From Veterinaerplatzvirus T145P1, in the sequence record OZ035765.1: 45,062 nucleotides of DNA; one strand, 5' to 3'. Below, piece after piece: positions 3,940 to 42,487 of the stretch. Each line of letters opens with the position of its first letter. Positions within the stretch are counted from its first letter, which is position 1. The position numbers and the translations under genes were made by a program. The notes under the pieces were generated by a model, which did no database searches, was not told where the DNA came from, and worked only from the letters and a program-made list of their open reading frames with translations.

Positions 3940-5028
3940 ATGTCTAAAATCCGATATGACAACGCAAAGTTTAAGGCAACAATCGACGAGAATGGATTCT
4001 TAGTAGATACGCCAGTTGTCGCACGTCTCGGCGTGCAAGTCTACTACATGGAGGACGGCCGCACTGTTCGGGAGTTTCGCCCAGCCGAGGAGGTTTTCAA
4101 AGATGAATCTCTAGCGAGCTACCAGGGCAAGCCAATGACCATGGACCATGTTTTCGTTAACTCAGAGAATGCTAAAGAGGTGGTGGTAGGATCGGTTGCT
4201 GGAAAGGCGGAGCCATTAGGCAGCTCTGTAGTTGCTCCAATTGTTATTTACGATAGTGCCGCCATCAAGGAAGCCATGGCAGGTAATGCAAAGGAGTTAT
4301 CCGTTGGATACTCATCAGTTATTGATTACACCCCCGGCTGGGGCGACCCTGTTACTGGCGAGTACTTCCTCAAGTCTGAAAGTGAGCTATTCGACGTACC
4401 AGAAGGATGGCAGGAGTTCGACGCAATTCAGCGTGACATTAAAGTGAACCATCTGGCAATGGTGTATCGCGGTCGCGCAGGCATTGCCAAATTGAATATG
4501 GACGGTGAGCAGGAAAACCCGTATACTACTGACGTTGATATCAATAAAGAGGATAAACAGGAAATGACAGTTAAAATTAAACTCGACGGCGCGCAGGAAT
4601 TTGAGGTCGCCCCGGAAATCGCCTCTCACATCGAAGCACTGAACGCAAAGGCTGACACCGCAATCGCAGAGCGCGATTCTCTGAAAGCTAAAGTAGATGC
4701 AATGCCAGCTGAAATCGAAGCTGCCGTTGCTAAAGCGAAAGCTGATGCTGATGCCCTAGCCGCTCTGGTTGCTGTTGCTGCTGAGGCTGGTGTTAAGGCT
4801 GACGGTCTGGATGCTAAAGGCATTAAAGTTGCTTACGTTAAAGAAGTCTCCGGTCTTGATGTTAGTGAGAAGTCTGACGCATACATCGACGCGGCATTCG
4901 ACATTGCCAAAGAATCTGATAAAATGGCTGAAGTACGTAAAGCAACTACTGCTTCCGACAAATCTGACAGCGCCGATGAGCCTAAGAAATTAGACCCACG
5001 TGCTCGTTTAGCTAAAATTAAGAAATAA
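3940..5028 (+). CDS. head morphogenesis / scaffolding protein
   Basis: Start moved to ATG at 3940 (RBS GAGGAG at 3927-3932); C-terminal Ala/Lys-rich coiled-coil region typical of scaffolds. Confidence 0.5.
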   Translation: MSKIRYDNAKFKATIDENGFLVDTPVVARLGVQVYYMEDGRTVREFRPAEEVFKDESLASYQGKPMTMDHVFVNSENAKEVVVGSVAGKAEPLGSSVVAPIVIYDSAAIKEAMAGNAKELSVGYSSVIDYTPGWGDPVTGEYFLKSESELFDVPEGWQEFDAIQRDIKVNHLAMVYRGRAGIAKLNMDGEQENPYTTDVDINKEDKQEMTVKIKLDGAQEFEVAPEIASHIEALNAKADTAIAERDSLKAKVDAMPAEIEAAVAKAKADADALAALVAVAAEAGVKADGLDAKGIKVAYVKEVSGLDVSEKSDAYIDAAFDIAKESDKMAEVRKATTASDKSDSADEPKKLDPRARLAKIKK

Positions 5029-19277: not shown

Positions 19278-19305
19278 AAAGCCCCTTAATTGGGGCTTTT
19301 CTTTT
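19278..19305. terminator. bidirectional terminator (J gene and convergent minus-strand operon)
   Basis: A-run, AGCCCC-TTAAT-TGGGGCT, T-run. Confidence 0.65.
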
Positions 19306-20275
19306 AGTAGAAGTTTGGGATAAATGGAAGTGCCATTGATATGTTCGTGTCGAAAGGAAACTGAGCGCCTGTCTGAGTTGAGTAGTTACCTATTACAGAT
19401 CCAGGAACAGCCCTAACGGAGCCTCCAGACATGCAAACACCCTTGTATCGTAAGTTGTTATACCCTCCGGTAACTCTAGTTGTAGCGCCGCACCTAAGCA
19501 GCGGGAAGAAACCACCATTTATTGACTGATATCCATTGCTTATTTGTATAAATCCACCAAGAACGAATGGGCGGCGAACACTTGAAAAAACAATCTGACC
19601 AGAACTATTTGACATTGTGAGTCCAGGCCCGGCCGGTGGTGGTTCATTCCTGAATATCACCAGCTGAACATGGGTACTTGCCGCAACATCATCTGTACCT
19701 CCGTAGGTTATATCCCTACACCATATTGTTGATCCATCTGATTCAAGTGATACGTTTGGATTATCCCACTTGCCGAATGGTATTCCGCTAACTGGTAGCG
19801 ATGCTGCACCGTTAACCTGTATGCCCCCAACCCAGGCCGCAGACATTAGCCGCGAGTTGCTTGATATAGCAAGGAAATCAGTTGAGTTCTCAACAAGTAT
19901 TCCAGGACTTGATGAGGATGAAGCCGGTAGTATCTCAAAGCAATTACCAGCAAAGTCAATTATTCGACCATTAGCACCATTGAAGTTGCTGATAGTTATC
20001 CTGCCAGTTCCGTCATTTACCTTTTGAAACCCGTTCATGTAATAAACTTCGGGTATAACATCGTAAGCGTCAACGTGGACTGCCTTCGTTGGTAGGCAGA
20101 AAGCCGTAGAGCCAGGAAACATTGTCAATCCAAAATCCCACGAGATTGCCGGGGTTGAAAGTCCATTGGTATTTATTGATCCAGTCACAGCAGGTGCCCT
20201 TAATCCTGCCGTGATTTCCATCGCTGGTCTTCCGTCATTGAGGTCAATCAATATACCCTGCGGCATTATTTCCAC
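19304..20275 (-). CDS. hypothetical beta-rich protein coupled to cor-like gene
   Basis: 323 aa, Gly/Asn/Ser-rich; start overlaps the stop of the upstream lipoprotein gene. Confidence 0.5.
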
Positions 20276-20511
20276 TCCTTACTGCCGTGATCTGCAACAG
20301 AACCGCCGTAACCGCCGCCAGATTTGCTTTCAATGCCAGCGTAGCGAATATCAACCTCACCAGCCGGAACAACTACACCGCCTTTCCACTTAGCTACGCA
20401 CACGCCGTTTGCTTGTGTTGCACACCACCCATCAGGTCGAGGACCAGAAGAACAACCTACTGTCATGATTACTGCCGCCGAGATGATTGCTGATTTGATG
20501 AAGTTAGTCAT
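20266..20511 (-). CDS. cor: Cor-like outer-membrane lipoprotein (superinfection exclusion, putative)
   Basis: Start moved to ATG at 20511 (AAGGAA RBS); signal peptide plus lipobox-like TVGC; located beside the J gene as cor is in FhuA-using phages. Confidence 0.5.
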
Positions 20512-33693: not shown

Positions 33694-33737
33694 TAGCACT
33701 TTTTGCCTAACGCATGCCGTAGAAATGAGGCATAATT
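33694..33737 (+). promoter_or_regulatory. conserved promoter/operator module
   Basis: TAGCACTTTTTGCCTA, CATAAT, leader TACCACATCGAAACGAG. Confidence 0.45.
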
Positions 33738-34301: not shown

Positions 34302-34787
34302 ATGAAGCAGAAGCTGCTAATTAGCGCCGCTACGGCTGCGGCAATATACATCGCAGCACCGCTTATTGAGCTCGTAGAGGGTGTGGAGAACAAGCCTTAC
34401 ATGGACATTGCCGGGGTGAAAACCGTATGCGCAGGTATTACTGGCTCTGACGTTGTTTGGGGTAAGACTTACAGTAATAGGGAGTGCCGGAACCTGCTGG
34501 AGAAGCACATCCAGATTCATGGTAAGTATGTTCAGGATGCAGTTACCTACCCAATTGCACCACAGACAAGAGCTGCATTAATCAGCTTTAGCTATAACGT
34601 TGGCGGCAATGCAATGAGGAAGTCTACCGCTGTAAGGCTAATCAACCAGGGTAAAGTTGAGAAGGGTTGCAACGCTCTCGGGATGTGGAACAAAGCAAGA
34701 GTTAACGGAAAGCTGAAGGTAGTTAAAGGCTTGGTGAATCGCAGGAATGAGGAGATTAAGTTATGTTTAAGTGGATTGCAGCGTTAG
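34302..34787 (+). CDS. SAR endolysin (T4-type lysozyme fold, putative)
   Basis: N-terminal hydrophobic signal-anchor segment followed by E...D...T lysozyme-like catalytic region. Confidence 0.8.
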   Translation: MKQKLLISAATAAAIYIAAPLIELVEGVENKPYMDIAGVKTVCAGITGSDVVWGKTYSNRECRNLLEKHIQIHGKYVQDAVTYPIAPQTRAALISFSYNVGGNAMRKSTAVRLINQGKVEKGCNALGMWNKARVNGKLKVVKGLVNRRNEEIKLCLSGLQR

Positions 34788-35152
34788 TAGTGTGCGTAGC
34801 TTTATCTGGATGTTCGGCAACTGATGCACTGACTGGATTGATTGGAAGCAAGCCGGAAGTTACAGCTCAGGTCGGGGCTGAGAACAACAAGGTTGGCGTT
34901 GGGTTAACGAATAAGGTCGATTCCAGCAGCTCCAGTGAAGCCACGGTTAAAGATTCTAAAGTTGGGTCACTTGATAGCTCAAGCGGGAAAAAGACTGCTG
35001 ACAACTCGATTAAGGCATCTACAATCACTGCCGAAAAGATTGAGATTACCAACAACGACTCATCCGCGCCTCCATGGATTGTAATGGGAGCTATGGGGTT
35101 GCTGTTTTTTGTTCCACTTACCGCAATCTTAAGACGCAAAAAAGCCTCCTAA
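34763..35152 (+). CDS. unimolecular spanin (T1 gp11-like)
   Basis: N-terminal lipoprotein signal (LSGC) and C-terminal transmembrane helix followed by RRKKAS; overlaps endolysin 3' end. Confidence 0.7.
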   Translation: MFKWIAALVVCVALSGCSATDALTGLIGSKPEVTAQVGAENNKVGVGLTNKVDSSSSSEATVKDSKVGSLDSSSGKKTADNSIKASTITAEKIEITNNDSSAPPWIVMGAMGLLFFVPLTAILRRKKAS

Positions 35153-37995: not shown

Positions 37996-38038
37996 ACTAT
38001 ACATTGAAAGCCCCGAAGGGCTTTAGCAATTAGTGCTG
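37996..38038 (-). promoter_or_regulatory. conserved promoter/operator module
   Basis: Minus strand TAGCACTAATTGCTA, 22 bp, TATAGT, leader TATCCAATCGAAACGAAACG. Confidence 0.5.
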
Positions 38039-38800: not shown

Positions 38801-38964
38801 TTATCCTGGCCTTTTAAATTATAACGCTCTCTCAGAACTTCAACCCATTCTTGCGCGTCATTCTCTCTCATGAAGAAACTTAAATTTGGGTACTTGTGAA
38901 ACCCTTTAAGTTCAACTATCCAATGACCACCTTCGTAACTATAACTAACTTTCTTCTCTGTCAT
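38797..38964 (-). CDS. hypothetical protein (55 aa)
   Basis: First gene of the minus-strand operon after a long structured leader. Confidence 0.35.
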   Translation of the reverse strand: MTEKKVSYSYEGGHWIVELKGFHKYPNLSFFMRENDAQEWVEVLRERYNLKGQDK

Positions 38965-39175
38965 TTTGTTACCTTTTGAGTTTTTTTATTATCGACATCT
39001 CTTCAACGTACTCGCTACAACTCGGGATTTTACTCCCGGCCCGGCATCCTAACAAAAGGACCCGATCGGCGCTTTGGTGGGTGAGGTAACGCTTCCTCAC
39101 ATTGCGCGGTAGTATTTACTCCTTTTGGTCTCTTTCGAGAGTGACTCAGAGTCTGCTACCGTGTCGATGAGATTA

Positions 39176-39219
39176 AGTATACGCATAGTTAGCCACACTG
39201 TCTTTAGCAAAAAGTGCTA
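39176..39219 (-). promoter_or_regulatory. conserved promoter/operator module (minus-strand small-gene operon)
   Basis: Minus strand TAGCACTTTTTGCTA, 23 bp, TATACT; followed by about 200 nt leader. Confidence 0.45.
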
Positions 39220-39232
39220 TTCGTTAGATTTA

Positions 39233-39321
39233 TGTATTGTTGCAGATATTGCAATGATTCACTTGATTATTGCACATACAGCAATATTGCTTCCGATGCA
39301 ATGATGTTTTTGATTGTTGCG
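39233..39321. repeat. iteron-like array of ATTG(N)TGCA / ATTGCAAT motifs
   Basis: At least six related motifs spaced 14-18 bp apart. Confidence 0.5.
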
Positions 39322-39508
39322 AAAAGTGAAATTAAGTGGTGAGTGAGTGAATGAAAGATGGATGGACTACCATACAAGTTGATTTTTACCAATCTATGGG
39401 AGCCTCACGGATATACGCGTATCCTCCGTATACTCAGTGTCGTCACAAAAGTTAGTGACCACTAACCTACGTTTTTACGCGATATATACACACGATATAC
39501 AATATAAT

Positions 39509-39574
39509 ATCTATATATATCAACCTTTTACTTTATTATTATTATTATTATTATATATATGTATACTGTGTATA
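39509..39574. repeat. AT-rich block, copy 2 with longer (ATT)n tract
   Basis: Same core as 20695-20751 with two to three extra ATT units. Confidence 0.7.
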
Positions 39575-39614
39575 CCGGTAATTGGTGAGATTATTGATAT
39601 GTTCCGCGCAGATA

Positions 39615-39632
39615 TTCTGACACCTGTCAGAA
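39615..39632. promoter_or_regulatory. perfect 8-bp-arm inverted repeat TTCTGACA-CC-TGTCAGAA
   Basis: Directly readable palindrome downstream of the AT-rich block and upstream of the 39850 gene. Confidence 0.45.
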
Positions 39633-39849
39633 ATGGATGGCATTGTAGGAATAAAAGGCACATATATAGGGAATGGCTTCAAAAATCTGTACACATCGGA
39701 TACGGCACATTTACAACCAGCAATGGAGGGGCCTCTGGAGGCAAGAAGCGTATCCATGATAAAATAGACGAAAATATACATTGACCGACACGTAAATAGA
39801 TGGCAATATAGCAGTCACTGAAACGAAGTAAAACAAACGAGGTATCAAC

Positions 39850-40398
39850 ATGCAGAAAGTAACACTAGGTGAAGTTATCCGTGAGATGGTGCGCAACGCG
39901 ATGGTGTCCGAGAGTGGTGAGTTTAAAGTTCCGGTTAGCCAGATATTCAAACTGGTTCGAGGCAAGGAATACCCTGAAATGGTGTATGACGAAGATACTA
40001 GTGAGATCCTCAACCTGGCAGATAGGGCGATGCCGGAACTAAAGAACTCATACATCTATAACACAGTGTCGAGAATGACAGAGCTTCGCGATGCTAATAA
40101 GCGAGCGAGATATAAGTTCATCTGGATTGATGATGACGGAGAGCAAACAAGGCCCGGTAGCTTCGACGGTGATGGCGCTGATAAATACCTGGTCATATAC
40201 ATTGAGAACGGCGCGCACTGGACTGGGAGTCGCGAAAAGAAAAAGCAGGAAGCGGAGAAAGAGGCGGCTATCATTGAAAAGTTCAAGTCTAGACTGCTCA
40301 AGCTGTCACCAAGTGTTGCTGGCTTGGAAGGTGAAGAACTTAAGGGCGCTGTTACAATGATTAATGCTTATCAGGAAATGATTAAGGAGACTAAGTAG
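39850..40398 (+). CDS. hypothetical protein
   Basis: 182 aa; first plus-strand gene after the divergent control region. Confidence 0.5.
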   Translation: MQKVTLGEVIREMVRNAMVSESGEFKVPVSQIFKLVRGKEYPEMVYDEDTSEILNLADRAMPELKNSYIYNTVSRMTELRDANKRARYKFIWIDDDGEQTRPGSFDGDGADKYLVIYIENGAHWTGSREKKKQEAEKEAAIIEKFKSRLLKLSPSVAGLEGEELKGAVTMINAYQEMIKETK

Positions 40399-40570: not shown

Positions 40571-40789
40571 ATGAGCAAGACAATCACGCTGCAATGCCTT
40601 AAGACAAATAACCCAGAGTTCTTAAAAGGTCACAAATATGTGGCAACCCTGGTGGATGGGAAAACATGGGCGGTTAAGGGTGGATTCCAGGATTACAAAT
40701 TCCCACTTGAGCACATACCTGGCGGAAACCTTGGTTTTGTTAGTGACTGCCGCTCAGTTAAGTTTGTTTTTGAGGTTGTAATGAAATAG
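40571..40789 (+). CDS. hypothetical protein
   Basis: 72 aa; promoter module at 40490-40533. Confidence 0.45.
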   Translation: MSKTITLQCLKTNNPEFLKGHKYVATLVDGKTWAVKGGFQDYKFPLEHIPGGNLGFVSDCRSVKFVFEVVMK

Positions 40790-40829
40790 CAATAATTGCT
40801 AAATCTTCCGCAAGGCCATTTGATATAGT
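40787..40829 (+). promoter_or_regulatory. conserved promoter/operator module
   Basis: TAGCAATAATTGCTA, 22 bp, TATAGT. Confidence 0.45.
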
Positions 40830-40870: not shown

Positions 40871-41098
40871 ATGGCTATCAATAGTGTTCGAATCTCTGAC
40901 GACTACAACGAGCAGGCTGAGGTTCTTGTTTACAAAGTCTTCAATATCGATCGGGATACAATGAAGGTTAAGCTCGACCTCAATCCTGATAACGAATCAT
41001 ATCCGTCAACATACATGCTGTACACGCCAGACCAGGCTCGCCAGTTAGCAGCGTATCTGATGGAAGCGGCCCACCGAGCTGATAAGGGGGTTTTATGA
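40871..41098 (+). CDS. hypothetical protein
   Basis: 75 aa; promoter module at 40787-40829. Confidence 0.45.
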   Translation: MAINSVRISDDYNEQAEVLVYKVFNIDRDTMKVKLDLNPDNESYPSTYMLYTPDQARQLAAYLMEAAHRADKGVL

Positions 41099-41310
41099 TT
41101 ACCGATCGCAAGCTCTTTAAAGACATGGAAGGCGATGACTGCTGGATTGACACGATGACAAATTTCGGAGATGTCACTGTCGAGATTGTAATTGACGATG
41201 AATCTGGAACCTTTCCCGTGCAAGATGCGGATACCGTACGCGCAATGGGTGAGCACTTAATCAAGATGGCTGACTACATGGAGAGCCAGGGGAAATTAGC
41301 TGTAAATTAA
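41095..41310 (+). CDS. hypothetical protein
   Basis: 71 aa; ATGA overlap. Confidence 0.4.
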   Translation: MITDRKLFKDMEGDDCWIDTMTNFGDVTVEIVIDDESGTFPVQDADTVRAMGEHLIKMADYMESQGKLAVN

Positions 41311-41342: not shown

Positions 41343-41552
41343 ATGAAGATGGAAAATATTCGTATTGAAGATGTTCACTTTGACCAAGCTGAGGTCGGAA
41401 TCACAAAAAGCGCTCGCGGAGACGTTGTATATCTGGACTTTAATCCGGATGACTACGGGGACGGCCAGATGCTGATGCACTACAGTCCTGATAAGGCGCG
41501 CAAATTGGCGGCAGCATTAATCCTGGCGGCGGAGGAGGTGGAGAAGCAATGA
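41343..41552 (+). CDS. hypothetical protein
   Basis: 69 aa; its Y/DxDxxM/xYxPDxARxLAAxLxxAA pattern resembles the 40871-41098 product, suggesting paralogues. Confidence 0.4.
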   Translation: MKMENIRIEDVHFDQAEVGITKSARGDVVYLDFNPDDYGDGQMLMHYSPDKARKLAAALILAAEEVEKQ

Positions 41553-41809
41553 AACGTTTAATGAAATGCATGACTATTATTGCGGCAATGATTGCTCTTA
41601 CTGGTTGCGAGAAGGCACCTGAGGTTCAGATTCAGTCAGGTGAATTCAATGTGGAGCGCCTATTCACAGTGGATGGATGTACCGCCTACCGATTCCGAGA
41701 TAGCTATAGAGCCATCTACTACACAAATTGCAATGGCAGTACGCAGAGTGAGTACAGGCACGGCAGGGCCATGAGACAAGAAACAGTTCAGACAGATCGC
41801 ACTAATTGA
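41549..41809 (+). CDS. hypothetical lipoprotein
   Basis: Signal peptide with lipobox LTGC; stop codon lies inside a promoter module. Confidence 0.45.
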   Translation: MKRLMKCMTIIAAMIALTGCEKAPEVQIQSGEFNVERLFTVDGCTAYRFRDSYRAIYYTNCNGSTQSEYRHGRAMRQETVQTDRTN

Positions 41810-41839
41810 TAAAAGGGGATCCATCCTGACTGGTATAAT
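41798..41839 (+). promoter_or_regulatory. conserved promoter/operator module (variant)
   Basis: CGCACTAATTGATA, 22 bp, TATAAT, with GGGGAT/ATCCCC hairpin enclosing the -10. Confidence 0.4.
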
Positions 41840-41992
41840 CCCCAGCATCAACCACATGAATGGAAGTTAAGTGACGATATACGAACATAAATTCAGTAGC
41901 AGGGGTATTGATATGCTCCTGCGCTATGTAGACGAAAAATACGCAAATCTCATGCTTAAGACGCATGGCGGCACAATAACGAGGATTGAGAT

Positions 41993-42323: not shown

Positions 42324-42366
42324 TAGCACGAATTGCTAAACCCGCTCCTGCGGGTTTTGTTATAGT
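42324..42366 (+). promoter_or_regulatory. conserved promoter/operator module
   Basis: TAGCACGAATTGCTA, 22-bp spacer that is itself a terminator-like hairpin, TATAGT. Confidence 0.5.
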
Positions 42367-42394: not shown

Positions 42395-42487
42395 ATGAAG
42401 CAATACACATCAAGCAATCACCATAACGGTCACATCATGCAGTTCTATCGCCACAATCTGAAGACTAAGGTAGTGTTTGGAAAATGA
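42395..42487 (+). CDS. hypothetical peptide (30 aa)
   Basis: Follows module 42324-42366; ATGA-coupled to next gene. Confidence 0.25.

Follow-up and report, generated by a model that had tools for sequence, protein, structure and literature searches.

Veterinaerplatzvirus T145P1 (sequence record OZ035765.1), whose 45,062-bp sequence is the complete genome of an Rtp-like siphophage (Drexlerviridae, Braunvirinae) and forms the whole window analysed here, carries at 41549..41809 on the plus strand a gene for a small prolipoprotein of the DUF4884 family. The gene runs from ATG to TGA, encodes 86 amino acids and is followed by a second in-frame stop codon, TAA, at 41810-41812. Its lipoprotein signal peptide (41549..41608, +) comprises an n-region, MKRLMK, with three basic residues, a ten-residue hydrophobic core, CMTIIAAMIA, and the lipobox LTGC (L17-T18-G19-C20; 41597-41608), in which Cys20 is encoded at 41606-41608 and is followed by Glu at position +2. 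In pattern searches, a PROSITE PS51257-type pattern and a stricter expression for the lipobox both match this site. The gene is preceded by a strong, GGAGG-rich Shine-Dalgarno run, GGAGGAGGTGGAG (41531..41543, +), and its start codon shares the tetranucleotide ATGA (41549-41552) with the stop codon of the upstream open reading frame (ORF), a start/stop overlap that, as read from the sequence, indicates translational coupling of the two genes. An earlier note on this DNA, made from the letters alone, had described an 86-residue ORF with a signal peptide and the lipobox LTGC, and the description is borne out by the reading frame, the pattern matches and the conservation of the lipobox, while the lipoprotein prediction that it proposed as a check finds the basic n-region, the hydrophobic core and the lipobox all present by pattern. 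The span given there, 41549-41839, has the correct start, but its end is the end of a downstream -10-like block and not that of the ORF.

The TGA stop codon (41807-41809) falls, just as the earlier note had stated, within the hexamer TTGATA (41806-41811), and TAA is next in frame. The hexamer belongs to a copy of the Drexlerviridae 21-nucleotide direct repeat (41794..41814, +; agATcGCACtaaTTGaTAAAA against the consensus aaATAGCACnnnTTGnTAAAA), the first 16 nucleotides of which double as the final codons and stop codon of the lipoprotein gene. Located 22 nucleotides 3' of TTGATA, the extended -10-like block TGGTATAAT (41831..41839, +) completes a repeat/-10 module and is the presumed promoter core for the next ORF, which starts with GTG at 41871. 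The sequence of the stop codon and hexamer is identical in two other T145P1 isolates, and the TGA within TTGATA is therefore not a sequencing error. The hexamer of Rtp, SU57 and JeanPiccard is TTGGTA, and their protein, ending in TNW, has one additional residue before a TAA stop codon; the T145P1 allele, common to the other T145P1 isolates, is one codon shorter through the change of TGG to TGA, which turns TTGGTA into TTGATA. In every one of these three relatives, the stop codon falls in the same element.

Direct orthologues of the gene are rtp3, SU57_0006 and bas02_0065 (JeanPiccard), which show 84-90% identity, occupy the equivalent genomic slot and share the overlap of stop codon and module; the lipoprotein region as a whole is 90-93% identical in nucleotide sequence, in segments, to those of phages SU57, Rtp and JeanPiccard. 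A sequence search recovered 22 clusters at 45-100% identity, each precomputed as PF16225/DUF4884, and a profile search of 1.84 billion representatives recovered 1,423 clusters at E<=0.001, including 365 at E<=1e-10, so that the family size of about 1,400 is a count of clusters at 50% identity. A precomputed PF16225 assignment accompanied all 120 of the 120 matches listed, out of 773 profile matches, and PF16225 was matched at E<=0.001 by 119 of 129 aligned relatives. Taken alone, the T145P1 protein matches PF16225 over residues 32-58 with 20.9 bits (E=3e-4), below the gathering cut-off of 30 bits. Its relatives have in common with it the lipobox, the LFTVDGCT.YRF.D core and two conserved cysteines, and the residues C20, F33, V35, LFTVDGCT, YR, D51, Y57 and TNC are invariant in the 22-cluster alignment. 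The lipobox cysteine lies 21-28 residues before the core motif in 165 of 171 family sequences, and Asp occupies position +2 in only 10 of the 171 sequences with the core motif, while 75 of 171 relatives carry an extra CGKxC cysteine pair that the T145P1 allele lacks. With 22 close and about 1,400 distant cluster homologues, an invariant core and a conserved lipobox, the gene is not a chance ORF. It is very probably a functional accessory gene that encodes a small, outer-membrane-anchored periplasmic DUF4884 lipoprotein and stands last in a four-gene unit bounded by two repeat/-10 modules. In annotation it is a real but ordinary gene (hypothetical, DUF4884), a new member of a known, uncharacterised family, for which the literature searched yielded mentions in two papers, neither of them on function. 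What makes the family of interest is that it is very common in phages, that it has a confidently predicted fold without a characterised relative and that it shows a cassette polymorphism.

By tblastn, DUF4884 is found in 119 phage records, about nine of which exceed 60% identity (T145P1, SU57, Rtp, ZL19 and JeanPiccard), the remainder comprising Tempevirinae and other Drexlerviridae (38-57%), Serratia myophages, Pseudomonas phage Dolphis and Xanthomonas jumbo phages, with several records named 'DUF4884 domain-containing protein' by PGAP (Prokaryotic Genome Annotation Pipeline). The metagenomic and genomic contexts include strings of small unannotated genes in 351-kb and 166-kb phage contigs, a Cupriavidus necator prophage whose member lies in a nin-like region adjoining NinB, and Serratia phage MyoSmar, in which the member belongs to a run of small genes 3' of the primase. 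Guilt by association was rejected as a route to function, the genes flanking the homologues in FritzSarasin, MyoSmar and a jumbo-phage contig being mutually unrelated; the sole neighbour in common is the DUF7174 gene that opens the Drexlerviridae region. A tblastn search of PLSDB, aimed at plasmid-borne entry-exclusion analogues, returned no match, and thus no plasmid with the gene.

The mature domain after Cys20 (41609..41806, +) is predicted to consist of a tether of about 12 residues and a six-stranded antiparallel beta meander, in which the core F33..V35..LFTVDGCT.YRF.D..Y.TNC is embedded. With 129 diverse sequences, AlphaFold2 produced a model with a predicted local distance difference test score (pLDDT) of 89.9 and a predicted template modelling score (pTM) of 0.70, while a shallower alignment gave a pLDDT of 68. 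The model contains a signal helix, a short tether and strands at residues 26-30, 33-41, 44-51, 54-59, 63-71 and 74-82. According to the strand boundaries and the alignment, C44 and C61 occupy adjacent hairpin turns at the same end of the sheet, with D51/G53 and G72/K(R)73 at the opposite end; each of the two cysteines is more than 90% conserved, and a C44-C61 disulfide is probable. Searches of the PDB by fold returned no solved or annotated structural relative, with Rtp45 (9RPS), Llp and Cor absent from the lists of hits, and a PDB sequence-profile search gave one spurious alginate-lyase repeat only. The residues conserved across the family are mostly structural, namely turn glycines, the two cysteines and core aromatics, while strands 4 to 6 are variable. 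Among close relatives, substitutions cluster in the signal peptide and in residues 50-80, and residues 25-49 are invariant. Codon 53 (41705-41707), at a variable turn following the invariant D51, encodes Tyr53 in the present sequence, Asp in two other T145P1 isolates, and Asp, Gly or Ser in other relatives.

Variation of a different kind was found in Warwickvirus, where the DUF4884 gene occupies a fixed slot, second after the divergent intergenic region and directly after a DUF7174 homologue. FritzSarasin and tonijn have flanking proteins that are 100% identical on both sides, whereas their lipoproteins are only 49% identical. The 96% nucleotide homology between the two phages ends 60 nucleotides into the gene, just past the lipobox cysteine (codon 18), and returns at the stop codon, supplied by the TAG of the following repeat, the swap spanning codon 21 to the end of the gene (FritzSarasin 2561-2755 and tonijn 4062-4267, in the coordinates of the compared pieces L014 and L016). 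Over the whole genomes of the pair, the receptor-binding and exclusion loci are 88-92% identical, and the distal lateral tail fibre has been replaced (32%). Co-variation of the lipoprotein with the receptor-binding locus was rejected, since these loci retain 88-92% identity while the alleles differ; co-variation with the lateral tail fibre, raised by this pair, was refuted by tonnikala, which combines a tonijn-type lipoprotein with a FritzSarasin-type fibre (94% identity). The lipoprotein alleles thus assort independently of both the receptor-binding locus and the lateral fibre, and both alleles are found within the species Warwickvirus tonnikala. Such an exchange of the mature domain as a cassette is what would be expected if the domain determined specificity and were subject to diversifying selection.

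In addition to a modification of the envelope for exclusion, the earlier note had considered receptor masking, a function for which T145P1 has another candidate. A lipobox scan of all T145P1 ORFs yielded three credible lipoproteins: the DUF4884 protein, a u-spanin-like protein and an 81-residue protein at 20266-20511. The last of these (20266..20511, -; lipobox TVGC) is an Rtp45 orthologue with 74% identity to Rtp45, lying directly 3' of an Rtp44-like receptor-binding gene (19304-20275, -; 39% identity to Rtp44) just past the J-like gene, and by orthology it would be the receptor-linked (LptD) exclusion lipoprotein of T145P1. At these identities, the Rtp45 orthologue is far better conserved than its receptor-binding partner. 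Rtp45 is an exclusion lipoprotein, and its cryo-electron microscopy structure with LptDE shows how the receptor-binding protein is kept off (PMC12685063). As reported for the BASEL phages, Rtp-type loci, each made up of a receptor-binding and an exclusion gene, determine the use of LptD and are transferred horizontally as units, and 11 of 13 Drexlerviridae, Bas04 and Bas05 included, use FhuA, BtuB, YncD or TolC as terminal receptor, not LptD (PMC8594841). The DUF4884 protein gives no BLASTP alignment with Rtp45, and outside the signal peptide Pfam and NCBIfam reveal no similarity to Cor, Llp or EexN; the NCBIfam Cor model does not match the T145P1 protein and matches one relative (P0025) weakly, at E=0.084. 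The gene lies 21 kb away from the receptor-binding locus in T145P1, and no homologue context examined places a member next to a receptor-binding gene. Homologues of Rtp45 occur in 307 phage records, 43 of them from phages isolated on Escherichia coli DSM 12242, none of which is a member of the DUF4884-positive set. In DSM 12242 and Guelphvirus-type phages, nucleotide homology to T145P1 sets in precisely where the module starts, at 41793/41799, and CEB_EC3a has another gene 5' of the same module, while FritzSarasin (Bas04) and PeterMerian (Bas05) carry DUF4884. The Rtp45 and DUF4884 genes are uncoupled in distribution.

Against this background, masking of the phage's own receptor, in which the lipoprotein would bind LptDE or another own receptor from the periplasm and block adsorption as Llp does with FhuA and Rtp45 with LptD, appears improbable. 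The protein does match Llp and Rtp45 in size class and design, as a small, beta-rich, disulfide-containing phage lipoprotein (PMC12685063), and its close homologues (at least 78% identity) all belong to LptD-type Braunvirinae such as Rtp and JeanPiccard. These likenesses are outweighed because T145P1 already carries an Rtp45 orthologue beside its receptor-binding gene, with no similarity between the two lipoproteins, because many Rtp45-bearing phages are without DUF4884, and because the Warwickvirus cassette swap is independent, the alleles differing between phages whose receptor-binding loci are 88-92% identical. Homologues are also present in FritzSarasin and PeterMerian, grouped by BASEL with the phages that do not use LptD, and in Serratia, Pseudomonas and Xanthomonas phages. 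The suggestion of receptor masking is accordingly not upheld, while an envelope-directed role is supported as the sole reasonable reading of a lipidated, disulfide-containing periplasmic domain of 66 residues.

Conserved structural positions, combined with variable strands and the cassette swap, point to a binding scaffold with diversifying specificity, which is the main, although indirect, argument for a role in competition or specificity. Under the established lipoprotein pathways, the precursor would be exported by Sec, diacylglycerylated at Cys20 by Lgt, cleaved before Cys20 by LspA and N-acylated by Lnt. In E. coli, Asp at position +2 is the rule for Lol avoidance, and with Glu instead of Asp at this position the T145P1 protein would be delivered to the outer membrane in a Lol-dependent manner. 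The tether of about 12 residues would then hold the beta meander, a domain of about 55 residues braced by a C44-C61 disulfide formed by DsbA, and the tethered domain could dock on a component of the infected cell's envelope that is exposed to the periplasm and is not LptD. The altered component might confer a competitive advantage, through either the exclusion of other phages or bacteriocins or the protection of the cell from an envelope-acting host factor. As a tentative reading, the mature domain may therefore be viewed as a periplasmic binding module that alters a non-LptD envelope component for competition or protection. A broader and more speculative proposal is that DUF4884 proteins might be widespread, unrecognised phage envelope effectors that provide receptor-independent superinfection exclusion or anti-competitor immunity, with the mature domain exchanged as a cassette; its corollary, which is just as speculative, is that the domain might be swapped between the signal-peptide sequence and the 21-nucleotide repeat, generating specificity alleles that co-circulate in one species.

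Several observations weigh against a competition role of this kind. The core is conserved across Enterobacteria, Pseudomonas, Xanthomonas and Cupriavidus phages, an observation that would fit a conserved housekeeping target just as well. One member, chromosomal and apparently outside any prophage, lies among housekeeping genes in a Segetibacter metagenome-assembled genome and matches PF16225 with 45.5 bits, so that a part in phage competition is not intrinsic to the family; a scan of a genome collection, with patterns that were too narrow, returned this Segetibacter locus only. Library searches lent no functional support: PHROGs matched phrog_6360, 902, 1754 and 8372, all of unknown function, Pfam returned only the sub-threshold DUF4884 match for the T145P1 protein, NCBIfam matched only signal-peptide segments (residues 1-30) of assorted lipoprotein models, and PADLOC found nothing for the lipoprotein. 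The ratio of nonsynonymous to synonymous substitution rates (dN/dS) in the annotated frame is 0.41-0.86 among close relatives; a dN/dS of 0.4-0.9 with an invariant core, a relaxed or diversifying pattern, counts in favour of the competition reading, but the values are based on just 16-21 substitutions per pair. Sorting to the outer membrane is deduced by rule, as is the disulfide, which is read from cysteine conservation and hairpin-turn positions, and the promoter activity of the modules is presumed from their position and synteny.

The invariance of the core among phages that infect widely differing Gram-negative hosts, together with the chromosomal gene in Bacteroidota and the location in small-gene strings typical of host-takeover genes, agrees with a takeover of the host envelope, whereby the lipoprotein would inhibit or redirect a conserved function (peptidoglycan hydrolase, envelope protease, Lpt, Bam or Tol-Pal) and thereby stabilise the cell or time lysis, playing no part in competition between phages. 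Such a function is possible but rather unlikely, as the replacement of the mature-domain cassette within one phage species is hard to square with just one conserved target, many Drexlerviridae do without the gene and no structural similarity to known periplasmic inhibitors was detected, PliC reaching just E=5.5. Spanins and u-spanins are likewise small phage outer-membrane lipoproteins, and a second spanin-like or lysis-regulating lipoprotein was considered on this ground. T145P1, however, has a u-spanin-like lipoprotein of 129 residues with the lipobox LSGC elsewhere, at the end of the lysis cassette (34763-35152, +), which has a weak spanin-family match (26.5 bits against a cut-off of 80) and is presumably a T1-type unimolecular spanin. 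The DUF4884 gene is 6.4 kb off in another transcription unit, its product has neither the proline-rich nor the C-terminal transmembrane features seen in spanins, and its homologues in other phages do not adjoin lysis genes, making an accessory role in lysis extremely unlikely. Finally, the ORF could be a functionless passenger retained between recombinogenic repeats, with selection acting on its overlap with the module; dN/dS reaches 0.86 in one pair, the gene is missing from many relatives, and the C-terminal TDRTN(W) tail coincides with the repeat. This, too, is very improbable, given that the 30-residue core, the lipobox and both cysteines are invariant across about 1,400 clusters, that the fold is confidently predicted and that the ORFs remain intact in phages without shared nucleotide similarity.

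The known systems closest to the proposed binding module are the receptor-blocking superinfection-exclusion lipoproteins, represented by Rtp45 (LptDE, PDB 9RPS), Llp of T5 (FhuA) and Cor of T1 and phi80 (FhuA), a class that acts from the periplasmic side (PMC12685063). Like these, the DUF4884 protein is phage-encoded, about 6-7 kDa when mature and predicted to be a lipoprotein of the outer membrane's inner leaflet with beta structure and a disulfide; it shows no similarity to them in the sequence and fold searches, however, and in the contexts examined it is neither located beside nor co-inherited with a receptor-binding gene. T4 Imm and Sp (spackle) are early envelope proteins that guard an infected cell against secondary infection at a step after receptor binding. 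Their role is of the kind proposed for the DUF4884 protein, although they are not lipoproteins and the analogy is functional only, with no homology to T4 Imm or Sp found in searches of PHROGs, Pfam and NCBIfam. T1- and Rtp-like phages are model siphophages and notorious laboratory contaminants, whose exclusion lipoproteins Cor and Rtp45 are now structurally understood, and many of them, as well as unrelated phages, carry this second conserved lipoprotein, the target of which is apparently not their own receptor. If the DUF4884 protein is indeed an exclusion or envelope-modifying factor, it would represent a new and very common part of phage-phage competition and a handle on a conserved periplasmic target, and the allele swap limited to the mature domain lends itself to a simple cross-exclusion comparison.

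T145P1 has a T1-like layout, with the terminase at the left end, a J-like tail tip gene, the lysis cassette and a string of small ORFs at 39.8-45 kb, and its tRNA content is one tRNA-Arg. The place of the lipoprotein gene in a string of small accessory genes, also claimed by the earlier note, is confirmed, while its 'early' timing is inferred solely from position, synteny and extended -10 motifs, and no T1-like transcriptome was found in the literature searched. Three small ORFs 5' of the gene (40871-41098, 41095-41310 and 41343-41552, all +) share a unit with it and have overlapping or closely spaced start and stop codons. A module copy upstream of them (40784..40829, +), consisting of the 21-nucleotide repeat, the 22-nucleotide spacer and TGATATAGT, is the presumed promoter of the four-gene unit that closes with the lipoprotein gene. 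Module scans and terminator/promoter scans detected neither a further module nor a terminator-like site between the module at 40796-40829 and position 41809, and the lipoprotein gene is therefore probably the fourth and final gene of a unit with these three ORFs. The next unit opens with the 41-residue ORF that begins at GTG 41871 and is kept in SU57. Two of the upstream ORFs, 40871-41098 and 41343-41552, both match phrog_13316 and share a C-terminal A(R)(K/Q)LAA.L..AA motif, as would be the case for paralogues, which they apparently are.

The repeat/-10 module occurs 13 times in the genome, each copy co-oriented with its downstream gene, with TTG starts at 2126, 9304, 30752, 33703, 40499, 40796, 41806, 42333, 42843 and 43710 on the plus strand and at 38029, 37242 and 27757 on the minus strand. 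Its consensus is AATAGCAC-nnn-TTGcTAAA, followed by an invariant 22-nucleotide spacer, TATA(G/A)T and the leader tacc.catcgaaacga. The repeat is conserved in Rtp, SU57, JeanPiccard and CEB_EC3a, and in SU57 one module carries a promoter annotation from BPROM. At the end of the lipoprotein gene, 22 nucleotides separate TTGATA (41806) from TATAAT (41834), the spacing found in 13 of 13 modules. The combination TTGATA-N15-25-TATAAT has 3 matches in the genome against 0.17 expected; TGnTATAAT is present at 41831-41839, and this motif alone is unenriched genome-wide, with 4 found against 2.2 expected. A TGn extended -10 occurs in 6 of the 13 modules (37242, 40499, 40796, 41806, 42333 and 42843), all at 37.2-42.9 kb, by or within the small-gene region. 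The 41806 copy has the weakest repeat of the 13 (leave-one-out score of 17.4 bits against 18.4-33.4), with one mismatch, A to C, in the ATAGCAC block, yet it possesses a consensus extended -10. The idea that this ATcGCAC deviation avoids an in-frame TAG was rejected, as the consensus in this frame reads AAT AGC, which is not a stop.

Within the repeat, TAGCA-N5-TGCTA is palindromic over 15 bp, with its centre near -42 as counted from the presumed start. Under the canonical sigma-70 criterion, with -35 and -10 hexamers 16-18 nucleotides apart, a consensus scan calls none of the 13 modules, the 41806 site included, and because of the 22-nucleotide spacer TTGNTA is not a normal -35. The sections on the repeat in a report on phage TLS (PMC11447400) give a 21-nucleotide consensus from 18 intergenic copies located about 76 nucleotides 5' of start codons, record the repeat in T1, Rtp and Rogue1 as well, and propose roles as a stoperator, an enhancer site or an UP element, with its function listed as an open question. 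The T145P1 repeat resembles that of TLS in being co-oriented with transcription and in its distance from repeat start to GTG 41871, which is 77 nucleotides compared with about 76 in TLS. The invariant 22-nucleotide spacing to TATA(A/G)T, the conserved leader, the TGn in 6 of 13 copies and the use for stop codons go beyond the description of TLS in those sections. 'Promoter module', the term of the earlier note, remains a fair working label in view of the extended -10 motif, with the qualification that the upstream half, at its 22-nucleotide spacing, is the published repeat and not an established -35.

The overlap of the lipoprotein stop codon with a module, on which the earlier note had remarked, is real but not peculiar to this gene, since the upstream gene's stop codon lies in or against the repeat in about 10 of the 13 copies. 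The repeat holds stop codons in two frames (TAG, and TGA or TAA). The repeat's TAG serves as the stop at 2126 (large terminase), 30752, 40796, 42843 and 43710; TGA or TAA within TTGATAA or TTGCTAA does so at 41806, 27757 and 38029; and a TAA abuts the repeat at 33703 and 42333. Such overlap reflects genome compaction and is routine in T145P1. Two modules, at 42333-42366 (+) and 38029-37996 (-), additionally contain a GC-rich, terminator-like hairpin in the 22-nucleotide spacer (AAACCCGCTCCTGCGGGTTT and aagcccttcggggcttt, respectively), resembling a combined arrangement of terminator and promoter. The repeats also coincide with mosaic junctions, as in the Guelphvirus and DSM 12242 phages, where homology starts at the module (41793/41799; piece L008 of CEB_EC3a, 1900-1960), and in Rtp, where a polynucleotide kinase gene is inserted directly after this module. 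A tblastn search of T145P1 found no homologue of this Rtp kinase, rtp4, while Rtp, FritzSarasin and tonijn encode one.

Elsewhere in the small-gene region, a 30-residue ORF at 42395-42487 (+) shares 93% identity with rtp6, for which the annotation in the Rtp record notes a similarity to T4 Stp, the activator of the PrrC anticodon nuclease. The leftward and rightward strings of small genes are separated by a long divergent intergenic region, 38964-39850, which contains three copies of a 20-nucleotide repeat (ATTGTTGCAGATATTGCAAT-like; 39236, 39266 and 39313) and several weak promoter-like sites and may be a control or origin region.

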